Origin: Methanobacteriota archaeon
GTDB taxonomy: Archaea > Methanobacteriota > Methanobacteria > Methanobacteriales > Methanobacteriaceae
DNA length: 16,985 bases
Assembly (NCBI GenBank): GCA_016874685.1
Contig: VGTM01000033.1
Span: forward strand, 1-16,985
Reading direction: 5' to 3'
Part shown: in pieces, positions 4,499-12,722 of the stretch
How the letters are laid out: each line of letters opens with the position of its first letter
Numbering within the stretch: the stretch's first letter is position 1
Position numbers and translations under genes: made by a program
The notes under the pieces: generated by a model
Database searches by the model: none
What the model saw: only the letters and a program-made list of their open reading frames with translations
Told to the model about the DNA's origin: nothing

Positions 4499-4852
4499 TT
4501 GGTTTTTATTGTATTGTTATTTTTGGGTGTTGTATTTGGTATCTATTTTGCAACAGCAGATACAAAGACCAGTATCAGTGGCAATATCACTAACATTTAC
4601 CATGATGGGAGAGGAGGAAATAATACAGCTGGTTCTATCATGATCAACGGAGTTGTCAACGGACATAACCAAAATGTGTCAGTTAAAGTGACCAAAGATA
4701 CTCAGATTTTCCTGAAAAAGGGAAATGATCGCCAAACAGTGACGTTTGAAACTCTCCAGGTGGGTCAAAAGGTAGAAATTAAAATCACAGGCTCTATAAT
4801 CCAAACTTATCCCCCCCAGGCAACAGCATTGGAAATCCTGATTTTGGAATAG
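4499..4852 (+). CDS. Hypothetical signal-anchored protein with beta-rich extracytoplasmic domain
   Basis: The N-terminal hydrophobic helix VFIVLLFLGVVFGIYFA is followed by a polar domain (VSVKVTKDTQIF...VGQKVEIKITG). The start is TTG 4499, with no in-frame ATG upstream and a GGGGAGTGA 23 nt upstream. Confidence 0.45.
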   Translation: MVFIVLLFLGVVFGIYFATADTKTSISGNITNIYHDGRGGNNTAGSIMINGVVNGHNQNVSVKVTKDTQIFLKKGNDRQTVTFETLQVGQKVEIKITGSIIQTYPPQATALEILILE

Positions 4853-4974
4853 ATTTCAAAATTACATCTTTTATAAGATTTTTTATAATTTTTATTTAAG
4901 TTTTAATTCAAGATAAAATTCACATATTAACTCTGTAAGATTTAAATATAAACAAAAATGCAAGTTTAATACCT

Positions 4975-5035
4975 GCCAAGGAGCTAAGAGGCGAAGCGGT
5001 GGACTGCATACATTAAAGGTGAGTTTAGATCTTCC
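4975..5035 (+). pseudogene. Degenerate partial copy of tRNA-Cys (5' half near-identical, 3' half decayed)
   Basis: GCCAAGGAGCTAAGAGGCGAAGCGGTGGACTGCA is near-identical (about 2 substitutions and 1 indel) to bases 1-35 of the intact tRNA-Cys at 7665. The following T-arm-like GGTGAGTTTAGATCT is degenerate, and no acceptor 3' strand is present. Confidence 0.6.
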
Positions 5036-5155
5036 TGTATGTATTCCTGAAAAACTGTTAGAATCTGCAAATATCAATGATGGGATTATGTAGAAGTTAA
5101 AATTAGGAAATTAAATAGAAAGGAAATAGATTAAAAAAATAAGGGCCGGATCTAA

Positions 5156-5737
5156 ATGGATAATATCGAAATTAGAAGAAAAATCTTAGAAAAATTGTAT
5201 GATACTGAAAAGATAAATCCTGGAAACATAATATCAAGTATTGACCTTGGTAACGAATTAAATATTTCTAATGAAGATTTAGGATTTAATATTAAATATT
5301 TAAAGGAAAAACAGTTTATTAATGCCGAGCAAATGGCTACTCCATTCTATTCCGCTCTTTTAAGCATTGCTCCCTATGGTATCGATATAGTTGAAGATGA
5401 AAATGAATTTAATAGAAGTTTTCCTTTAATGAATATAACAAATATTCGCAATAGTAAAGGCGTGGTAATAAATTCCGATAACGTTAAGATTGATATCAGT
5501 GAAAATATCAACATAAAAGACAGTTTTAATGAAATATATAATGAAATTGATAATCATATTAATGCAAAAGAAGTTGAACAACGAATTAAAGCAATTGAAG
5601 AAGAATTAAGCAAGGATAAAATTAGTACATCTAAAATAAAAGAATCCACAAACTGGCTTCATAAAAATGCTAATTGGACTATACTTCCATTAATTCAGAT
5701 TTTTCTTAGTTTATATGGGCTCACTTTACCTCGTTAA
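5156..5737 (+). CDS. Hypothetical protein: N-terminal winged-helix-like segment, C-terminal transmembrane anchor
   Basis: ORF of 193 aa with ATG 5156. The N-terminus IRRKILEKLYD...SSIDLGNELNISNEDLGFNIKYLKEKQFI has a wHTH-like pattern. The final 25 aa are hydrophobic (WTILPLIQIFLSLYGLTL). Confidence 0.5.
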   Translation: MDNIEIRRKILEKLYDTEKINPGNIISSIDLGNELNISNEDLGFNIKYLKEKQFINAEQMATPFYSALLSIAPYGIDIVEDENEFNRSFPLMNITNIRNSKGVVINSDNVKIDISENINIKDSFNEIYNEIDNHINAKEVEQRIKAIEEELSKDKISTSKIKESTNWLHKNANWTILPLIQIFLSLYGLTLPR

Positions 5738-5814
5738 AAAAAGAGAAATAATTTAAATTATCTTTTATAGGACATTGCTCTGTAAATCTGTTTTACATAG
5801 TTTCTTAAGATTAT

Positions 5815-7359
5815 CTATTCTTTACTTCTTTTTTCTATTCCTTTTTGAACTTCAACAGCTTTCTTTCCAATTTCTTTTATAAAATAATGTATTACTTTCA
5901 TTTGAGTTAAGCTTTCAAAATCAGGTTTAAAGCTCAATAAACAATTAGTGACATGCATTAAAGAAATAGCTGTATTTTGAAGTGGATCTGCAAGACCATA
6001 ATTTGAAGCTCCAATATGCAAAATCTTATTCTGAGAATCATCCATTAATCCCATACTATGAAAGCCTCTGGAACTTCCATGAACATGTGCTGATGATAAT
6101 TTATAAAATGGACGTAACCTATCAAGCCCTATATATCCCTCTAAACCTCTAAAAGACCGATCCAATCCTTTAAAGTTAGGTATCCATCCATTATCTCCAT
6201 AATAATCACTACCATATTTATTACATAGATAATCCTTTCTTTCTTTCAGTTTATCCAAAGTTTCTTTTTTATGTGGAGCATAGCCTAATTTTTCACACTG
6301 TTCTTGATAAATCAAGGCTTCTTTGTATCTCATTATACTTTCATGTTCTAAATATCTTTGAGAAACAATATTATCATTATCTGATAAAAAAATGGAAATC
6401 ACTGCAAGTTCATGTAAACTTCTCCATCTAGCATTAGCACCATTAGGATATCCTGCCTTTAATAATGTGAGAGCTTCATTACTTATTTGCAAAGCCCTAG
6501 CATGAATTCTAATAAGAGTATTAAACTTAATATCTTCTCTAAAACCTTTTTGGGTAACTTTTTTTCTGTGATTATCAACTGAATCCAATGAAACCCTAAT
6601 TAAACACTCTAATAAATCTAAGGGTTCTTCCCAGTCTTTATATAAAATAGACTCAAATTCCTCTCTATATCCTTTCTGTTCAGTTAACATCTCTTTACTG
6701 AGATCTTTAAATGATTTAAAATAAATTTGAGCAAGTCCAGGTATCAATTTGTTAGCAAGACCATTTTTTAATTTATTCATGTCTTTACCAAATGAAAATG
6801 TATTGTTTTTTTTAATATTAGCTGCTATTATTGCTGTCATTATTTTTGAATGTAAATCTCTGTCAGTTCGTCCTGATTTTTTAATTTCTTCTTTTTTTTC
6901 TTTTAGATATTTTTTGCTTCGATTTATATCAATTTCTTTTTCTAATTGCGCAATTAAATTAAGGATTTTTGGAAAATCACTTTGCAATCTTGCCTTAAAA
7001 TTATTGTAATATTCTACATCGATTTTTTTCACTTTTTTTTCATCTTTAACGTGAATAATTGAGTCTACATCTTTTTGGACATCTTCATATTTATTTTTTA
7101 TATTTTCACGCATATCTATTGATAATCCATATTCTTCAAGGTTTTCTGGAGTTAAATTACTAAAAAAATTGTCAATAAATGTAGCATAAAAGAAAGACTC
7201 AAATAATTCAAAAAAATAATTCTGTAGAATTTCTGATTTATCATATTCATTAAGCATCTCAACAAATTGACTAAATAATTCATCCAATTCCGCATAAAAC
7301 TTTTCAGTCATAATACTTAATTTATTAAAATCAATTAATATTTTTCCATTTTCTTCCAT
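5815..7359 (-). CDS. Large hypothetical protein with a K/E-rich coiled-coil-like N-terminal half and a C-terminal region carrying an Rx4H (HEPN-like) motif; possible defense/abortive-infection type protein
   Basis: Long open frame of 514-525 aa. The first ATG is at 7359 (MEENGKIL); the frame opens further at TTG 7392. The motif ALTLLKAGYPNGANARWRSLHELAV matches the HEPN Rx4-6H pattern. The gene has very low GC compared with its neighbours. Confidence 0.55.
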   Translation of the reverse strand: MEENGKILIDFNKLSIMTEKFYAELDELFSQFVEMLNEYDKSEILQNYFFELFESFFYATFIDNFFSNLTPENLEEYGLSIDMRENIKNKYEDVQKDVDSIIHVKDEKKVKKIDVEYYNNFKARLQSDFPKILNLIAQLEKEIDINRSKKYLKEKKEEIKKSGRTDRDLHSKIMTAIIAANIKKNNTFSFGKDMNKLKNGLANKLIPGLAQIYFKSFKDLSKEMLTEQKGYREEFESILYKDWEEPLDLLECLIRVSLDSVDNHRKKVTQKGFREDIKFNTLIRIHARALQISNEALTLLKAGYPNGANARWRSLHELAVISIFLSDNDNIVSQRYLEHESIMRYKEALIYQEQCEKLGYAPHKKETLDKLKERKDYLCNKYGSDYYGDNGWIPNFKGLDRSFRGLEGYIGLDRLRPFYKLSSAHVHGSSRGFHSMGLMDDSQNKILHIGASNYGLADPLQNTAISLMHVTNCLLSFKPDFESLTQMKVIHYFIKEIGKKAVEVQKGIEKRSKE

Positions 7360-7618
7360 CTTTACTTGAAATCTTAGACTGCCGAATACCAACTCTCAAA
7401 GTTTCACCTTTACGTCTGGCCCTTAAAAATTTCCTCTGGGTTTCTTCAATAGCTTCCATTAGGCGCATATATTTTGTTTCAGGCGAAATAACTTTATTGT
7501 ACTTAGAATGGCTATAATCAATATTAAATAAAACGACATTAGATATTTTTAAATATAAATAGGGTATAATTAAACCATATTTAAATTTCATTATTTTAAA
7601 AATTGTTTCACTCCACAA
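7331..7618 (-). CDS. Small ORF (95 aa, TTG start) overlapping the 5' end of the large Rx4H gene; possibly spurious
   Basis: ORF only, with no RBS. The first ATG is internal and the product is basic. Confidence 0.2.
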   Translation of the reverse strand: MWSETIFKIMKFKYGLIIPYLYLKISNVVLFNIDYSHSKYNKVISPETKYMRLMEAIEETQRKFLRARRKGETLRVGIRQSKISSKDGRKWKNIN

Positions 7619-7664
7619 GATTTAAATACCAACAATATATAATGTATTTAATGCGCTATGGTAT

Positions 7665-7736
<72 letters not shown>

Positions 7737-7780
7737 TCTTAAATTCTTTAAAGCATAAAATCTCAGATTTTTAAATTTGT

Positions 7781-7919
<139 letters not shown>

Positions 7920-7925
7920 TCACCC

Positions 7926-7937
7926 TCTTTTTTTTAT
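7926..7937 (+). terminator. Oligo-T tract (9 T) immediately after tRNA-Trp; archaeal-type terminator
   Basis: ctcttttttttta directly follows the tRNA 3' end. Confidence 0.4.
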
Positions 7938-7990
7938 TGATATTACATTTAAAATTAGAATAAACCAAAAAAGTATCTCTGGTGGATAAA

Positions 7991-8611
7991 ATGGAAAAGA
8001 TCAATGATGTCTTCATAATTGAAGGAGTGGGTTTTGATTCTAATGTTTATATCATCCATGACATGATCGTTGATACTGGAACAGGAGAAAACATTCAATA
8101 TATATTAAATTCTGTTAAAAAAGCGGGTCTTAGAGTTGAGGACATATCAATGGTTTTAAATACACACTGTCATTTTGATCATACTGGAGGTAACCCCTAT
8201 TTTCCATCTGCCAAAATAGCCATTCATAAAGACGATGCCTCTGCACTGGAGGAAAGTGACGGTGTTAAAACCCTTGGTTTTATGTTTAAAAGATCATTTG
8301 AACCAATGAAAGTTGATGTTTATTTGAATGAAGGTGATAGAATTGGCAATTTTGAAGTTATTCACACTCCAGGACATACCATGGGTTCTATCTGTCTTTA
8401 TGATGGGGAAATTTTAATATGTGGGGACACAGTTTTTGCAAATGGAGGTTTCGGCAGAGTGGATCTTGGTGGAGACTTAAAAATGATGCAAAAATCTTTA
8501 GAGAGGCTCAGTAAGCTGGATATAGAATATCTTCTCCCTGGACACGGACCATGGGTCAATAATGGATCTCAACACGTAAAATGGGCATATGATCTTTTAA
8601 AAGAATTTTAG
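7991..8611 (+). CDS. MBL-fold metallo-hydrolase
   Basis: HCHFDHTGG (the HxHxDH motif), a later His (HTPGH), and a C-terminal PGHG. A GGTGGA RBS sits 4 nt before ATG 7991, and the frame also opens at GTG 7982. Confidence 0.85.
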   Translation: MEKINDVFIIEGVGFDSNVYIIHDMIVDTGTGENIQYILNSVKKAGLRVEDISMVLNTHCHFDHTGGNPYFPSAKIAIHKDDASALEESDGVKTLGFMFKRSFEPMKVDVYLNEGDRIGNFEVIHTPGHTMGSICLYDGEILICGDTVFANGGFGRVDLGGDLKMMQKSLERLSKLDIEYLLPGHGPWVNNGSQHVKWAYDLLKEF

Positions 8612-8731
8612 AGGAATAAACTGATTCATTTAATCTGCAATTTTTTATTTAAGAATTTAAGGTAAATTTTCAAATAATAGACAAATTTATACAAAATAAT
8701 AATTTTAATGGCTTAAATCCTTAATACTTAA

Positions 8732-8940
8732 ATTTAGGCTCTGTAGAAATCCTCATCAAAAGTTGATGATGAAAGTATAATGCTTTGAAATATTTGTGAT
8801 TATAAGACCATAAAGATGTTTTAGCACTCTGAATGCATAGATAAGCTTTAATAGATATTTTTCCGACCAAAACATCTATAGATCATCTTACTTGATAATA
8901 ACTTATGTACAAATTTGCATGTTTTCTACAGAGCCTAAAT
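8732..8940. mobile_element. MITE-like non-autonomous element, copy A (~209 bp, 18-bp terminal inverted repeats ATTTAGGCTCTGTAGAAA)
   Basis: The left end atttaggctctgtagaaa is the exact reverse complement of the right end tttctacagagcctaaat. It has no coding capacity. It has internal inverted repeats (TCATCAA-aag-TTGATGA, and AGATGTTTT...AAAACATCT). A second, about 97% identical copy is at 12888-13096. Confidence 0.7.
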
Positions 8941-8944
8941 GAAT

Positions 8945-9403
8945 TCAGATCTTTTCAATATACACTGCTTTAATTAATGGTACAACTGTGTTTTTGGGTA
9001 AGTCTTCTTGTGACGTAGATGGGCCGTATTCTCCATAGACCTCTATTTTATCTCCTTCTTTGTAGGGTATTCGTGTTGAGTAGGTTACTAGAATGTATGG
9101 GTTGGGTGATAGTTCAGGGACTTTAAGCTCAATGTCAGTGGTGTTATCAAAGTTTTCTCTTATCTTTAGTATTTCACCTTTCACTTTAACTCTCTGTCCT
9201 AATGATTTATCAGAAATCATAGATACGTTCAGTTCACTGCAAGAAGCTTTATACGCTGAAACATTATCTTCTGAAACAGTGGGTAAACAAATATCACTTC
9301 TCTCCACCTCACCTCCTACAAATCCAAACATTACTATGTAACCTATAAAACCTGCCGCCACTGTTATTAGTAGTACTGCTAGAACTTTACTCAATTTCTC
9401 CAT
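8945..9403 (-). CDS. Small membrane-anchored protein, paralog 1 of 3 (N-terminal TM/signal anchor plus ~120-aa extracytoplasmic domain with OB-fold-like profile)
   Basis: GGAGGAG RBS before ATG 9403. N-terminus MEKLSKVLAVLLITVAAGFIGYIVMF. Conserved core VKVKGEIL...IELKVPELSP.PYILV.YS..IP.KEGD.I.VYG.Y shared with 10374-10856 and 10890-11372. Confidence 0.65.
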   Translation of the reverse strand: MEKLSKVLAVLLITVAAGFIGYIVMFGFVGGEVERSDICLPTVSEDNVSAYKASCSELNVSMISDKSLGQRVKVKGEILKIRENFDNTTDIELKVPELSPNPYILVTYSTRIPYKEGDKIEVYGEYGPSTSQEDLPKNTVVPLIKAVYIEKI

Positions 9404-9443: not shown

Positions 9444-10140
9444 TCAGCATTCCAAAGGTCTAGTGAGGGAGCCATTCCAAGACCATTCCCAAACCCAGTC
9501 ATAATGCCATTCTGTCACATAAGCATATACCCAACGAAGAACTCTTCTCAATTCTACTTTACTCGGTTTACCCCTATACCGCTTTGTTACTACATACTCA
9601 CGTACATACATCTGTATCCAAGTCCAGTGCCCCCCATAATGCTGTACTTTCACCCATAATTTGCCCTTAACACTCTGCATTTCTTCATCGGTTAGAGTTC
9701 TGTTATCTGAATGCACCTTAGTTGAATTTATATTTGTTGTGTCAGTTACGGATTCTGACGATGTTGTATTTCCATTGATTTGATTTGTTTGATTATTTGC
9801 TTGATCTGTAGTTCCATTAACTTGTGTTGAATTATTAGGATCATTTATAACCAGTGCATATCCGCTGTAAACCTCAGCAAACTTCTCTCTGCTCATATCA
9901 ATGTTCCCTAGGGAGGGATCTGCCAGTTTAACGCTTTCATTTGTTATTTCTCTTACGACGCTGTAGTGTGGTCCGCCATCGATGGTTACATACACTATGT
10001 TGTTCTTTTTAAGCTCCTCTATTGACAGTTTCATGCCAACCGCATTTAAATCTTTAGCCTTGGCTGCTTCTGCCAATCGTACATTGTTGTCCAGTTTTCA
10101 TCTGTTCCCCCGACATTGGCAAATTTCCGTTATGTTATAT
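9444..10140 (-). pseudogene. 5'-truncated, frameshifted duplicate of the C39-like peptidase gene (retains the region after the catalytic Cys plus the W/Y-rich tail)
   Basis: The ORF 9444-10076 (TTG start) aligns with residues about 190-400 of the 402-aa protein. Nucleotide identity is about 90% over 9895-10010 versus 11950-12070. Upstream in another frame reads GTDENWTTMY (the intact copy has GTDENGTTMYGLVEAAKAK). A 1-nt deletion near 10079 breaks the frame, and the N-terminal signal peptide, linker and CGPAALA catalytic motif are absent. Confidence 0.65.
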
Positions 10141-10373: not shown

Positions 10374-10856
10374 TTATGTTTTTTCTATGTATGCGGCTTT
10401 GATAGCGGATAAATCTTTGTTTGCCAATTCTTGTGATGATTGAGTTCCTACAGGAAATTCATATACTCCATATACTGTTATCATGTCGCCTTCTTTGAAG
10501 GGGATGGTTGCTGAGTAACTGACAAGAATGTGATGGTATGGTGAGAGTTCTGGAACTTTAAGTTCAATGTATGTTCTTGTTTTGTCAAATTGCATATATT
10601 CTTCTTTTTTTTGTATTTGGCCTTTTACTTTGACTTTTTGTCCGTTTAGAGCTTTGAAATCTTTAGATAATTCAGATAGGTTAATTTCGGTGCAGGAATT
10701 TTTATATGATGAAATATTGGCTTCTCCTGTAACAGCGGGTACATAAAAATCGCTTTCCTTACCTTCAAAAGTAAAAGGTATTCCAAATATTACATAAGCA
10801 AAAGCAGCTACTACTATAATTAGTATTACTGCCAGAACTTTACTCAATTTCTCCAT
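10374..10856 (-). CDS. Small membrane-anchored protein, paralog 2 of 3 (OB-fold-like extracytoplasmic domain)
   Basis: GGAGGT RBS 7 nt before ATG 10856. It shares the N-terminus MEKLSKVLAV with paralog 1 and the core EGKESD.Y.PAVTGE.NIS.YKNSCT..NLS...VKVKG.I..KEEY.QFDKTRT.I.LKVP.LSP with paralog 3. Confidence 0.7.
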   Translation of the reverse strand: MEKLSKVLAVILIIVVAAFAYVIFGIPFTFEGKESDFYVPAVTGEANISSYKNSCTEINLSELSKDFKALNGQKVKVKGQIQKKEEYMQFDKTRTYIELKVPELSPYHHILVSYSATIPFKEGDMITVYGVYEFPVGTQSSQELANKDLSAIKAAYIEKT

Positions 10857-10889: not shown

Positions 10890-11372
10890 TCACTTCTTTT
10901 CTATGTACCCTGCTTTAATACAGGGAAAAAATTTGTTTGCTATCTCTGGTGGTGCATCAGTTCCTCCTGGGTAATAATATTTTCCATAAACCGTTATCAT
11001 ATCGCCCTGTGTGAATGTAAGTGTCCCAGAGTAACTGACAAGAATGTAAGGGTCGGGTGAAAGTCCTGGGACTTTAAGTACTATAGATGTTCTTGTTTTG
11101 TCAAATTGTACATACTCTTTTTTTTCTAGTATTTCACCTGTCACTTTTACATTTTTATCAATTAATGAAAAAGGATCTTTTGATACTTGAGATAAGTTAA
11201 GTTTAGTGCAGGAATTTTTATATGCTGAAATATTGTCTTCTCCTGTAACAGCAGGTGCATAATAATCGCTCTCCTTACCTTCAAAAGACAGCCCAAAAAT
11301 TTGAATATAACCTATAAAACTTACTGCTGCTATTATTAGTAGTACTACTGAAATTTTTATTTTTTTATTCAT
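10890..11372 (-). CDS. Small membrane-anchored protein, paralog 3 of 3 (OB-fold-like extracytoplasmic domain)
   Basis: GGTGA RBS before ATG 11372. It is 160 aa and shares about 60% identity with paralog 2 over the ectodomain. Confidence 0.7.
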   Translation of the reverse strand: MNKKIKISVVLLIIAAVSFIGYIQIFGLSFEGKESDYYAPAVTGEDNISAYKNSCTKLNLSQVSKDPFSLIDKNVKVTGEILEKKEYVQFDKTRTSIVLKVPGLSPDPYILVSYSGTLTFTQGDMITVYGKYYYPGGTDAPPEIANKFFPCIKAGYIEKK

Positions 11373-11513: not shown

Positions 11514-12722
11514 TTAACCATAATATGGCCATGGAGGAGTAAAGAATCCAACATAATTCCAAGGCAATGTCCAACACCAAATTCTCACTACATGCCATCC
11601 ATATATTTTCCTATACCATCCCCATTTTTGATACCAACCCTCATGCCTATAAAACAGCCAAGCAGTACTTGATCCTTTAACAGTACCTGCGGGAAATATA
11701 TGTGTGTGTCGTCCATATTTCCACTCATACCAGCTCCAAAACCATCCTTTTACCCATACAGGTATCAAAGCGTGTTTTCCTTTAATATTCTGCATCTCTT
11801 CGTCAATCAGAATTTTACTGTTATCTGCCTGCACATTAGTTGAATTTGTATCTGTTTCATTCTTTGTTTGTTCTGTAGTTCCATTAACTTCTGTTGAATT
11901 ATTAGGATCAGTTATAACCAACGCATTCCCACTATAAGCCGCAGTAAAATCTTCTCTACTCATTTCAATGTTCCCTAGGGAGGGATCTGCCAGTTTAACG
12001 CTTTCATTTGTTACTTCCCTTACCACGCTGTAATGTGGCCCGCCATCGATTGTCACAAACACTATGTTATTGGGTTTAAGATCATCTACTAATAACTTCA
12101 TACCAACACCATTAAAACCTTTTGCTTTTGCTGCTTCAACTAACCCATACATTGTTGTTCCGTTCTCATCTGTTCCGGCTAAAGTTGCTAGTTCTTGTTC
12201 TGTTGTGTTGATTCCCAGGTTATTTAGTACTGTTGCAAGGGCTGCTGGTCCGCAGGTATGATTGGTTGACTGCATCACAATACCCGTTGTGTCTATTTGT
12301 GGAATTGTCTCATTTTCAGCCACCGTTGTATCATTCTCAAGATTAATATTTAAATCCGGGATTTGCACATCTTCTGTAACTTGATCATTCACGACTGGCG
12401 TAGAATTATCATTTGTCGTTGTATCTGGTTCTGTAACTGCATTTGGTGTTTCAATTGCAGTATTTTGCTCTGTAGCTGTGTTTGACATGTCTGCTGTCAT
12501 ATTAGCTACTTCAATATTTGTTTCAGTTTGTCCATCCTCAACCTGCTCAGTTATCTGAGATGCAGCCTCTGCATCAACACCTTTTCCTTTAACATCCATT
12601 GGATCAAGTGTTTGGAAATTGGCGGAAGCTGCAACAGCACATGCTGGTGATAATCCCATGATCAAAGCCACCAGCATGATGGCTGCCACTGTTTTGGTAT
12701 TAACTTTCTTCAATTTTATCAC
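11514..12722 (-). CDS. Secreted C39-like cysteine peptidase domain protein with T/N/E-rich linker and Trp/Tyr-rich C-terminal tail
   Basis: Sec-type signal peptide (MIKLKKVNTKTVAAIMLVALIMGLSPACAVAASA). The low-complexity linker is rich in N-x-T/S sequons. The C39-like catalytic signature is QSTNHTCGPAALATVLNNLG (Cys) with a downstream DGGPHYSVV (His). The last ~85 aa are about 30% W/Y/F. The start is GTG 12722 or TTG 12713, with an AGGGGTGA RBS. Confidence 0.75.
   Translation of the reverse strand: MIKLKKVNTKTVAAIMLVALIMGLSPACAVAASANFQTLDPMDVKGKGVDAEAASQITEQVEDGQTETNIEVANMTADMSNTATEQNTAIETPNAVTEPDTTTNDNSTPVVNDQVTEDVQIPDLNINLENDTTVAENETIPQIDTTGIVMQSTNHTCGPAALATVLNNLGINTTEQELATLAGTDENGTTMYGLVEAAKAKGFNGVGMKLLVDDLKPNNIVFVTIDGGPHYSVVREVTNESVKLADPSLGNIEMSREDFTAAYSGNALVITDPNNSTEVNGTTEQTKNETDTNSTNVQADNSKILIDEEMQNIKGKHALIPVWVKGWFWSWYEWKYGRHTHIFPAGTVKGSSTAWLFYRHEGWYQKWGWYRKIYGWHVVRIWCWTLPWNYVGFFTPPWPYYG

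Follow-up and report, generated by a model that had tools for sequence, protein, structure and literature searches.

Here, we analysed a stretch of 16,985 nucleotides (nt) from an archaeon of the Methanobacteriaceae (assembly GCA_016874685.1, contig VGTM01000033.1; hereafter the window), with a focus on one gene of 514 codons on its reverse strand. A preliminary description of this DNA had presented the product as a large orphan protein carrying the Rx4H motif of HEPN ribonucleases (RNases), and had suggested that it might be an abortive-infection (Abi)-like defence toxin. The open reading frame (ORF) and the quoted peptide with its Rx4H string are indeed present: LIRIHARALQISNEALTLLKAGYPNGANARWRSLHELAVISIFL was confirmed in ORF 5815-7359 of the reverse strand, where R311-x4-H316 corresponds to window positions 6412-6429. 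At the local base composition, a stop-free run of 514 codons has a chance probability of ~4e-18. The features of this gene and of the segment around it are listed below.

5815-7359, reverse strand: DUF5677-family gene, 514 codons (514 amino acids, aa), an exact sequence match to the public record MBM4240968.1 'hypothetical protein' (FJ150_04820)
6805-7311, reverse strand: N-terminal helical module (aa 17-185), specific to the ~500-aa subfamily and also fused elsewhere to other C-termini
6538-6804, reverse strand: helical linker or stalk (aa 186-274), common to short DUF5677 proteins according to alignments, with one long helix (192-273) in the AlphaFold model and inside the phrog_27456 match
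5818-6537, reverse strand: C-terminal DUF5677 domain (aa 275-514), with a predicted HEPN-like helical-bundle fold
6409-6444, reverse strand: signature DGAx[AS]-R-W-R-x-[LI]-[HY]-E (aa 306-317), here NGANARWRSLHE, which contains the Rx4H string
6079-6081, reverse strand: codon of H427, the only invariant His of the family, at the end of helix 413-426
5156-5737, forward strand: convergent gene for a 193-aa protein (MBM4240967.1), the N-terminal ~85 aa of which are weakly winged-helix-like
~4975-5040, forward strand: degenerate tRNA-Cys copy with a near-identical 5' half and a decayed 3' half, left border of the low-GC 2.7-kb segment
7665-7736, forward strand: intact tRNA-Cys gene (GCA; ARAGORN, and Rfam at 63 bits), right border of the segment

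The translation start of the gene is probably Met17 (ATG at 7311), giving a protein of 498 aa, because alignments of homologues begin at residue 17 of the query and residues 1-15 are modelled at a predicted local distance difference test (pLDDT) value below 50 in the AlphaFold model. The residue numbers used here are those of the 514-codon frame.

The very low GC content ascribed to the gene was borne out (27.4%, against 33.7% outside the segment 5009-7664 and 33% for the window as a whole). The DUF5677 gene and its convergent 193-aa neighbour fill a 2.7-kb stretch of 27% GC between the tRNA-Cys copies. The description of this island as bracketed by tRNA-Cys holds on the right, where the tRNA gene is intact; on the left, however, there is only the degenerate copy. 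As a functional tRNA the left copy was rejected, since it was scored neither by Rfam, even at E<=10, nor by ARAGORN. The closest part of the repeat consists of 27 nt at 96% identity (4982-5008 versus 7673-7699), with promoter-like similarity upstream, and the whole duplicate including the promoter-like region spans 4927-5040 and 7607-7736, both on the forward strand. It is thus the 5' half of the tRNA gene and its promoter-like region that are duplicated. Integration scars at tRNA genes usually keep the 3' end, and no integrase was found between the two copies in the ORF list or by Pfam; the decayed copy could stem from a duplication or from an integration. At the DNA level, the window resembles the closest Methanobacterium locus over 5751-7349 only, a stretch that corresponds to the gene by itself.

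Family membership and modular architecture

The protein matches the Pfam model DUF5677 (PF18928) with 88.7 bits against a cut-off of 27.1, over aa 281-441 and profile positions 3-163 of 166, and the same model matches all 29 aligned homologues that were searched with Pfam. A DUF5677-type profile was among the checks proposed in the preliminary description, and it proved to be the matching one. Among 5.8 billion proteins, 255 homologues (E<=1e-3) were recovered by a word-indexed search, so the protein is not an orphan. By these sequence matches, the gene is a member of a widespread family present in both archaea and bacteria. NCBI names its relatives 'DUF5677 domain-containing protein', and the Pfam family carries no assigned function; its model spans only the middle of the C-terminal domain of the window protein. 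PHROG family phrog_27456, also of unknown function, matches a larger part (aa 173-507, 2.7e-54). Scans of the protein with PADLOC and NCBIfam gave no match, and neither of the two full-text papers found to mention DUF5677 gives a mechanism.

Most of the 255 homologues are 490-520 aa long and cover 95-97% of the query at 40-79% identity. The sources named for them include Heimdallarchaeota, Methanoperedens, Aenigmatarchaeota, Bathyarchaeota, Actinobacteria and Thermodesulfobacteriota, and homologues of ~500 aa also occur in Methanobacterium, Bathyarchaeia, Nitrosopumilus, Actinomycetota, Aminicenantes and others. With one genome scanned per species, 158 loci were identified, the closest of which, in Methanobacterium sp. 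palsa_68, encodes a protein of 73% identity. A shorter form of ~350-460 aa is found in haloarchaea, Pseudomonas, Vibrio, Shewanella, rhizobia, planctomycetes and others. DUF5677 thus spans methanogens, haloarchaea, Escherichia coli prophages and a Bacillus phage, and yet it is a family without an assigned function.

Among the short forms, nine haloarchaeal genomes of different genera (loci L047, L053, L054, L056-L058, L060, L062 and L072) carry a DUF5677 gene of 459 aa, in two cases on plasmids. Because the motif regions of these genes are identical and their flanking ORFs are conserved, the gene appears to be a recently spread mobile element in this group.

The ~500-aa subfamily differs from the common DUF5677 members of ~350 aa by an additional N-terminal module of ~170 aa, which the latter lack. 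As the short members begin at about residue 170 of the window protein, the conserved core is approximately aa 170-514 and the extra module aa 17-170. A full-length AlphaFold2 model, built with an alignment of 115 sequences, is all-helical with a mean pLDDT of 90.4, and the model of the isolated C-terminal domain reached 95.8. The N-terminal 280 aa had been described as highly charged and coiled-coil. The charge was confirmed (35% charged residues; K 13.6%, E 11.1%), but the region is modelled as approximately ten separate helices at a pLDDT of ~90, followed by a long helix (192-273). According to the model, this part of the protein is a conserved folded module plus a long helix and not a generic K/E-rich coiled coil. 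The linker (aa 186-274) holds an invariant Trp (W243) and the conserved residues P246 and D248.

The N-terminal module is not confined to DUF5677 proteins. An exhaustive search with aa 1-170 against 1.84 billion cluster representatives gave 84 hits, most of which belong to the ~500-aa family or are fragments of it. Four proteins of 620-743 aa (P0194, P0200, P0217 and P0265), however, possess the module and lack DUF5677 as well as any other Pfam domain. We read the hydrophobic C-terminal stretches of P0200, P0217 and P0265 as two putative transmembrane helices. In three further proteins (P0243, P0260 and P0252) the module is accompanied by weak beta-propeller matches, and in P0243 and P0260 also by TPR matches. 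The module of P0200 is 40% identical to that of the window protein over 162 aa, and its gene (L094, 5001-7232) adjoins an ScoMcrA-like SRA-HNH gene, GmrSD, a UvrD helicase gene and a MazE-like gene; the gene for P0243 adjoins an AIPR gene. P0200 is a candidate sister defence protein. A shared N-terminal module with exchangeable C-termini could serve as a handle for finding defence systems in archaea, which are far less explored in this respect than bacteria.

Predicted fold and conserved residues of the C-terminal domain

When the full-length model was compared with PDB structures by Foldseek, nothing was found below E 0.5, and the hits were only rhodopsins and G-protein-coupled receptors. The model of the isolated domain (from aa 275 on), on the other hand, gave a list of PDB matches the top of which is dominated by HEPN chains of many families. 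These chains were aligned over 80-85% of their own length at 2.3-3.3 Å, the full HEPN alignment comprising 107 residues. The hits included TT1696 (8.0), the HEPN protein 4nqf (8.0), ST0689 (7.8), the sacsin HEPN domain (7.8), the LinB C-terminal domain (7.6), Csm6 (7.4 and 6.8), AbiV (9bj5, 7.4), YutE (6.7), the HepT toxin (6.7) and kanamycin nucleotidyltransferase (6.7). The matches to other folds were shorter or partial ones, to helical hairpins of membrane proteins and to designed proteins. In the model, the domain forms an up-down bundle of four helices, which can be superposed on HEPN domains of known structure. A HEPN fold of the C-terminal domain is supported by these comparisons, which rest on a predicted model of a kind of fold, the helical bundle, that can arise by convergence. 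The link between DUF5677 and HEPN provides a biochemical hypothesis that can be tested.

Several known HEPN proteins were compared with the window protein. The best structural neighbours are AF0298, TT1696, ST0689, sacsin and the C-terminal domains of nucleotidyltransferases. AF0298-like HEPN proteins (PDB 2hsb; UPF0332/HEPN-T branch) share 12% identity with the window protein and give no profile match; they are single domains of ~125 aa, whereas the bundle considered here is part of a 240-aa domain with large insertions, within a protein of ~500 aa. AbiV of Lactococcus (PDB 9bj5), a HEPN RNase, has 201 aa and an RNA antitoxin (abiV2), whereas the window protein matches no AbiV model in Pfam or PADLOC and its gene has neither a repeat nor a conserved upstream element; of the two marks of an AbiV system, a model match and an adjacent RNA antitoxin, neither was found. 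The AbiV motif RNHKSKH is situated in the loop that follows helix alpha3, while RWRSLHE of the window protein lies inside a helix. The layout is that of AbiJ-type proteins, in which a varying or shared N-terminal module precedes a C-terminal HEPN fold. No sequence relation to AbiJ was detected, and, in contrast to AbiJ, the family of the window protein keeps its N-terminal module constant and swaps the C-terminus (DUF5677, a putative transmembrane domain or a propeller/TPR region).

To assess conservation, we used two sets of sequences, 115 close homologues and 82 species-level homologues with identities down to 27%. Nine residues are invariant in all 115 close homologues (R288, E295, G303, R311, W312, R313, W392, H427 and G455) and nine in all 82 species-level homologues (E295, G303, R311, W312, R313, E317, W392, H427 and G455); E317 is kept in 113 of the 115 and in 82 of the 82. 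The position that completes the Rx4H string behaves differently from its Arg. Residue 316 is His in 96 of the close homologues and otherwise Tyr (11), Arg (4), Asn (2) or Cys (2). At species level it is His in 52 sequences, Tyr in 25, and other than His in 30 of 82. In addition, an Rx4H string arises by chance in 44% of shuffles of the window protein. The claim of a conserved catalytic Rx4H motif was therefore upheld for R311 and failed for H316.

The position of the motif within the fold also appears to be unusual. A survey of HEPN proteins (PMC3710099) locates the motif where helix 3 ends or the helix 3-4 loop starts; its Arg is usually followed by N, D or H, and helix 2 carries a conserved acidic residue. 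The domain model opens with helix 277-301, and the motif helix is 305-326. As the model starting at aa 275 still gives a full 107-residue HEPN alignment, the order of helices suggests that Rx4H sits on the second helix of the bundle and not at the end of helix 3. E317 is likewise on the second helix of the domain, and its match to the HEPN helix-2 acid depends on this deduced mapping of helices. The C-terminal domain is predicted to be HEPN-like in its fold, as the preliminary description had proposed, but the Rx4H string is probably not the active site. In HEPN domains of the AF0298 and AbiV types, the motif His is missing, and a different conserved His is contributed by the insert that separates helices 2 and 3 (PMC3710099); in AbiV the functional RNHKSKH follows the second core helix, with R and H not strictly conserved (AbiV preprint). 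Because these branches use another His, it is a reasonable guess that the window protein has a relocated site made up of E317 as the helix-2 acid, R311, R313, E295 and H427. Mutagenesis would best be directed to these five residues rather than to H316.

Genomic neighbourhoods and candidate regulators

We clustered the neighbouring ORFs over 25 non-redundant loci of the ~500-aa form, from which the context is given as qualitative counts and not as enrichment statistics. No neighbour family was present in more than four of the 25 loci, so the search for a conserved partner gene had a negative outcome. The commonest neighbours were Eco57I-like restriction-modification genes (4 loci), tyrosine integrases (3) and Dcm with Vsr (2). 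One Methanobacteriaceae island (L004) contains a type I restriction-modification system, two TIR proteins and a DUF7380/EMARD_N protein, and at 4534-9329 of the same locus an Eco57I/TaqI_C gene has a DUF5677 gene on either side, the two being divergent paralogues of 473 and 442 aa. At another locus the homologue is found with an MmeI-type enzyme, Dcm/Vsr and a DEAD/MZB helicase, and at yet another an NgoPII-Dcm-Vsr operon leads directly into the DUF5677 gene. AbiJ-type genes are likewise often located beside restriction-modification operons (PMC3710099, Table 1), and the DUF5677 domain has been reported to be enriched beside serine recombinases linked to defence (PMC12632615).

Members of the family also occur on phages and plasmids. 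E. coli has a 341-aa member, WP_000379313.1 (L092 and L093, 9111-10136, in E. coli 55989 and O128:H27). Its gene belongs to a lambdoid prophage and has hokD on one side and, on the other, a DUF977 gene and the replication region. Of 5426 complete E. coli genomes, 73 encode this protein at >=99% identity, so that it offers a convenient stand-in for experiments. Further members were found in Bacillus phage SPR, an SPbeta-like virus, and in 13 records of a plasmid collection; in Haloferax and Planctomyces, the surroundings of the gene on the plasmids were not informative. The recurrent defence and mobility neighbours together with the patchy distribution are those of an accessory gene, and the defence context that had been supposed for the window gene is supported by the neighbourhoods of its homologues. 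The gene moves horizontally as a single-gene cassette into defence islands, prophages and plasmids.

In a different setting, another metagenome-assembled genome (MAG) of the Methanobacteriaceae has its DUF5677 gene inserted between two primase genes, one for the small and one for the large subunit, and a DDE transposase is encoded just beyond them (L006, 4798-9216).

Regulation by the convergent protein or by a small upstream ORF had also been suggested, and neither turned out to be a conserved partner. The winged helix-turn-helix signals of the 193-aa protein are below threshold (MarR 3nrv at E 0.023, TubR and HTH_34), and only three homologues of it are present in the database. A gene for a related 172-aa protein is again convergent with a DUF5677 gene at L001 only, and this type of protein occurs in two of the 25 loci. 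In a Methanobacterium MAG (L097, 5012-6558), a homologue of the 193-aa protein is encoded with a TIR-domain gene 27 nt upstream and a PIN_8 gene after it; a further homologue occurs near an EVE/NmeDI_C gene (L099). The 193-aa protein looks like another gene of the defence island and not like a dedicated antitoxin, and its small family may itself be associated with defence.

The upstream candidate, an ORF of 95 aa at 7331-7618, was rejected as a gene, having no homologues, no family match and no conservation at the closest locus. Conservation between the window and the locus of the closest homologue does not extend to the DNA upstream of the gene, and with L010 it stops at 7349. Tandem repeats or a repeat array that could form an RNA antitoxin were not found near the gene.

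Possible functions and other features of the window

Given the established family membership, predicted fold similarity, conservation pattern, mobility and genomic context, we tentatively propose, at a level of confidence that falls a little short of an even balance, that the gene encodes a mobile stand-alone defence effector in which a swappable N-terminal module controls a HEPN-like, possibly RNase, C-terminal domain. Our confidence in the family and in the fold is much higher than in this mechanism. According to the proposal, the protein would act by itself against viruses, in the manner of abortive infection, and aa 17-185 would form its regulatory or sensing part. The C-terminal domain would most likely bind and cleave RNA, at a site that is not the canonical Rx4-6H but a relocated one formed by the invariant residues E295, R311, R313, E317 and H427. 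Such a site would resemble that of the AF0298/AbiV branch of HEPN domains, in which the canonical His is missing and another is used.

In a more far-reaching reading, the family might represent an unrecognised branch of HEPN with a moved catalytic centre, consisting of the RWRxL[H/Y]E motif on helix 2 and H427 from an insert, and a form of modular single-protein immunity in archaea that joins an N-terminal sensor or regulator to an RNase-like or membrane-spanning domain. This wider view is possible but doubtful at present. If the gene were inactive, or if its product were only a binding protein, the finding would be an ordinary one, namely one more mobile hypothetical gene.

Several observations weigh against a defence RNase. 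No HEPN family was matched in Pfam at E<=10 by any of the 29 members, and the link is also absent from the PADLOC and NCBIfam scans, so that the HEPN-clan profile hit that the preliminary description had called for did not appear. When the PDB was searched by sequence with the single protein and with the family profile, the only hits were chance ones to ribosomal protein eS12 (E ~0.6). H316 is replaced by Tyr or another residue in 17-37% of homologues, and the residue after the motif Arg is Trp in every sequence and not a polar one. A DUF5677 ORF from Bacillota was not among the five constructs that were active against six Enterococcus phages (PMC12632615), which is a weak negative because it concerns one homologue, one host and six phages. 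Activity has not been demonstrated for any DUF5677 protein, and some loci of homologues have no defence-related genes nearby. In the HEPN branch of the best structural neighbours, the catalytic motif has often been lost and the domain binds nucleotides.

An explanation along this last line is that the domain has a HEPN fold but is not a nuclease, and that, similar to the nucleotidyltransferase-associated and sacsin HEPN domains, it binds a nucleotide, some other small ligand or a protein partner in a pocket formed by the invariant Arg, Glu and His residues. The protein would then serve in sensing or regulation. We consider this rather unlikely. Neither a nucleotidyltransferase gene nor a fixed partner adjoins the gene in the 25 non-redundant loci, and five charged or His residues that are invariant over a range of 27-80% identity fit catalysis at least equally well. 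Moreover, AbiV, which has the same structural neighbours, is an RNase, and the alternative C-termini joined to the N-terminal module include a putative membrane-spanning, effector-like domain.

It is also conceivable that the protein is not related to HEPN and is a structural protein or an enzyme with a helical bundle (a hydrolase acting through H286, E295 and H427, for example), the role of which on mobile elements lies outside defence; the resemblance to HEPN would then be due to convergence. This appears improbable in view of the many HEPN families at the top of the isolated-domain list and the partial nature of the remaining matches, as well as the recurrence of restriction-modification, TIR and integrase genes as neighbours.

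The least probable explanation is the canonical HEPN RNase toxin, with R311-x4-H316 in a composite site of a dimer and restrained by the 193-aa protein or the small upstream ORF: it has in its favour the Rx4H string with an invariant R311, the predicted HEPN-like fold and the second convergent arrangement, at L001, but H316 gives way to Tyr, Arg, Asn, Cys, Glu or Leu in 19 of 115 and 30 of 82 homologues, W312 is not polar, the motif helix appears to be the second of the bundle, the string is frequent in shuffles, the 193-aa protein is absent from 23 of the 25 loci and has relatives that adjoin TIR or EVE genes, and neither the 95-aa ORF nor a repeat offers an antitoxin.

Three other features of the window are recorded here. 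A second tRNA gene, with a long intron, is located at 7781-7919 on the forward strand; it was detected by Rfam at 41 bits and missed by ARAGORN. Its anticodon region is CCA (Trp), and the intron of ~65 nt contains the box C/D-like motifs ATGATGA and CTGA, which are known for introns of euryarchaeal pre-tRNA-Trp. A gene of the phosphoenolpyruvate mutase/isocitrate lyase family is split into two forward ORFs, 1321-1827 and 1878-2225, corresponding to profile positions 1-137 and 156-239, and could represent a frameshift, a pseudogene or an assembly error. Finally, the reverse strand encodes a pair of peptidase C39-domain proteins (9444-10076 and 11514-12722), of which one is truncated, and between them are two ORFs of 160 aa and of unknown function (10374-10856 and 10890-11372); such a peptidase C39 cluster is odd for a methanogen-like genome.

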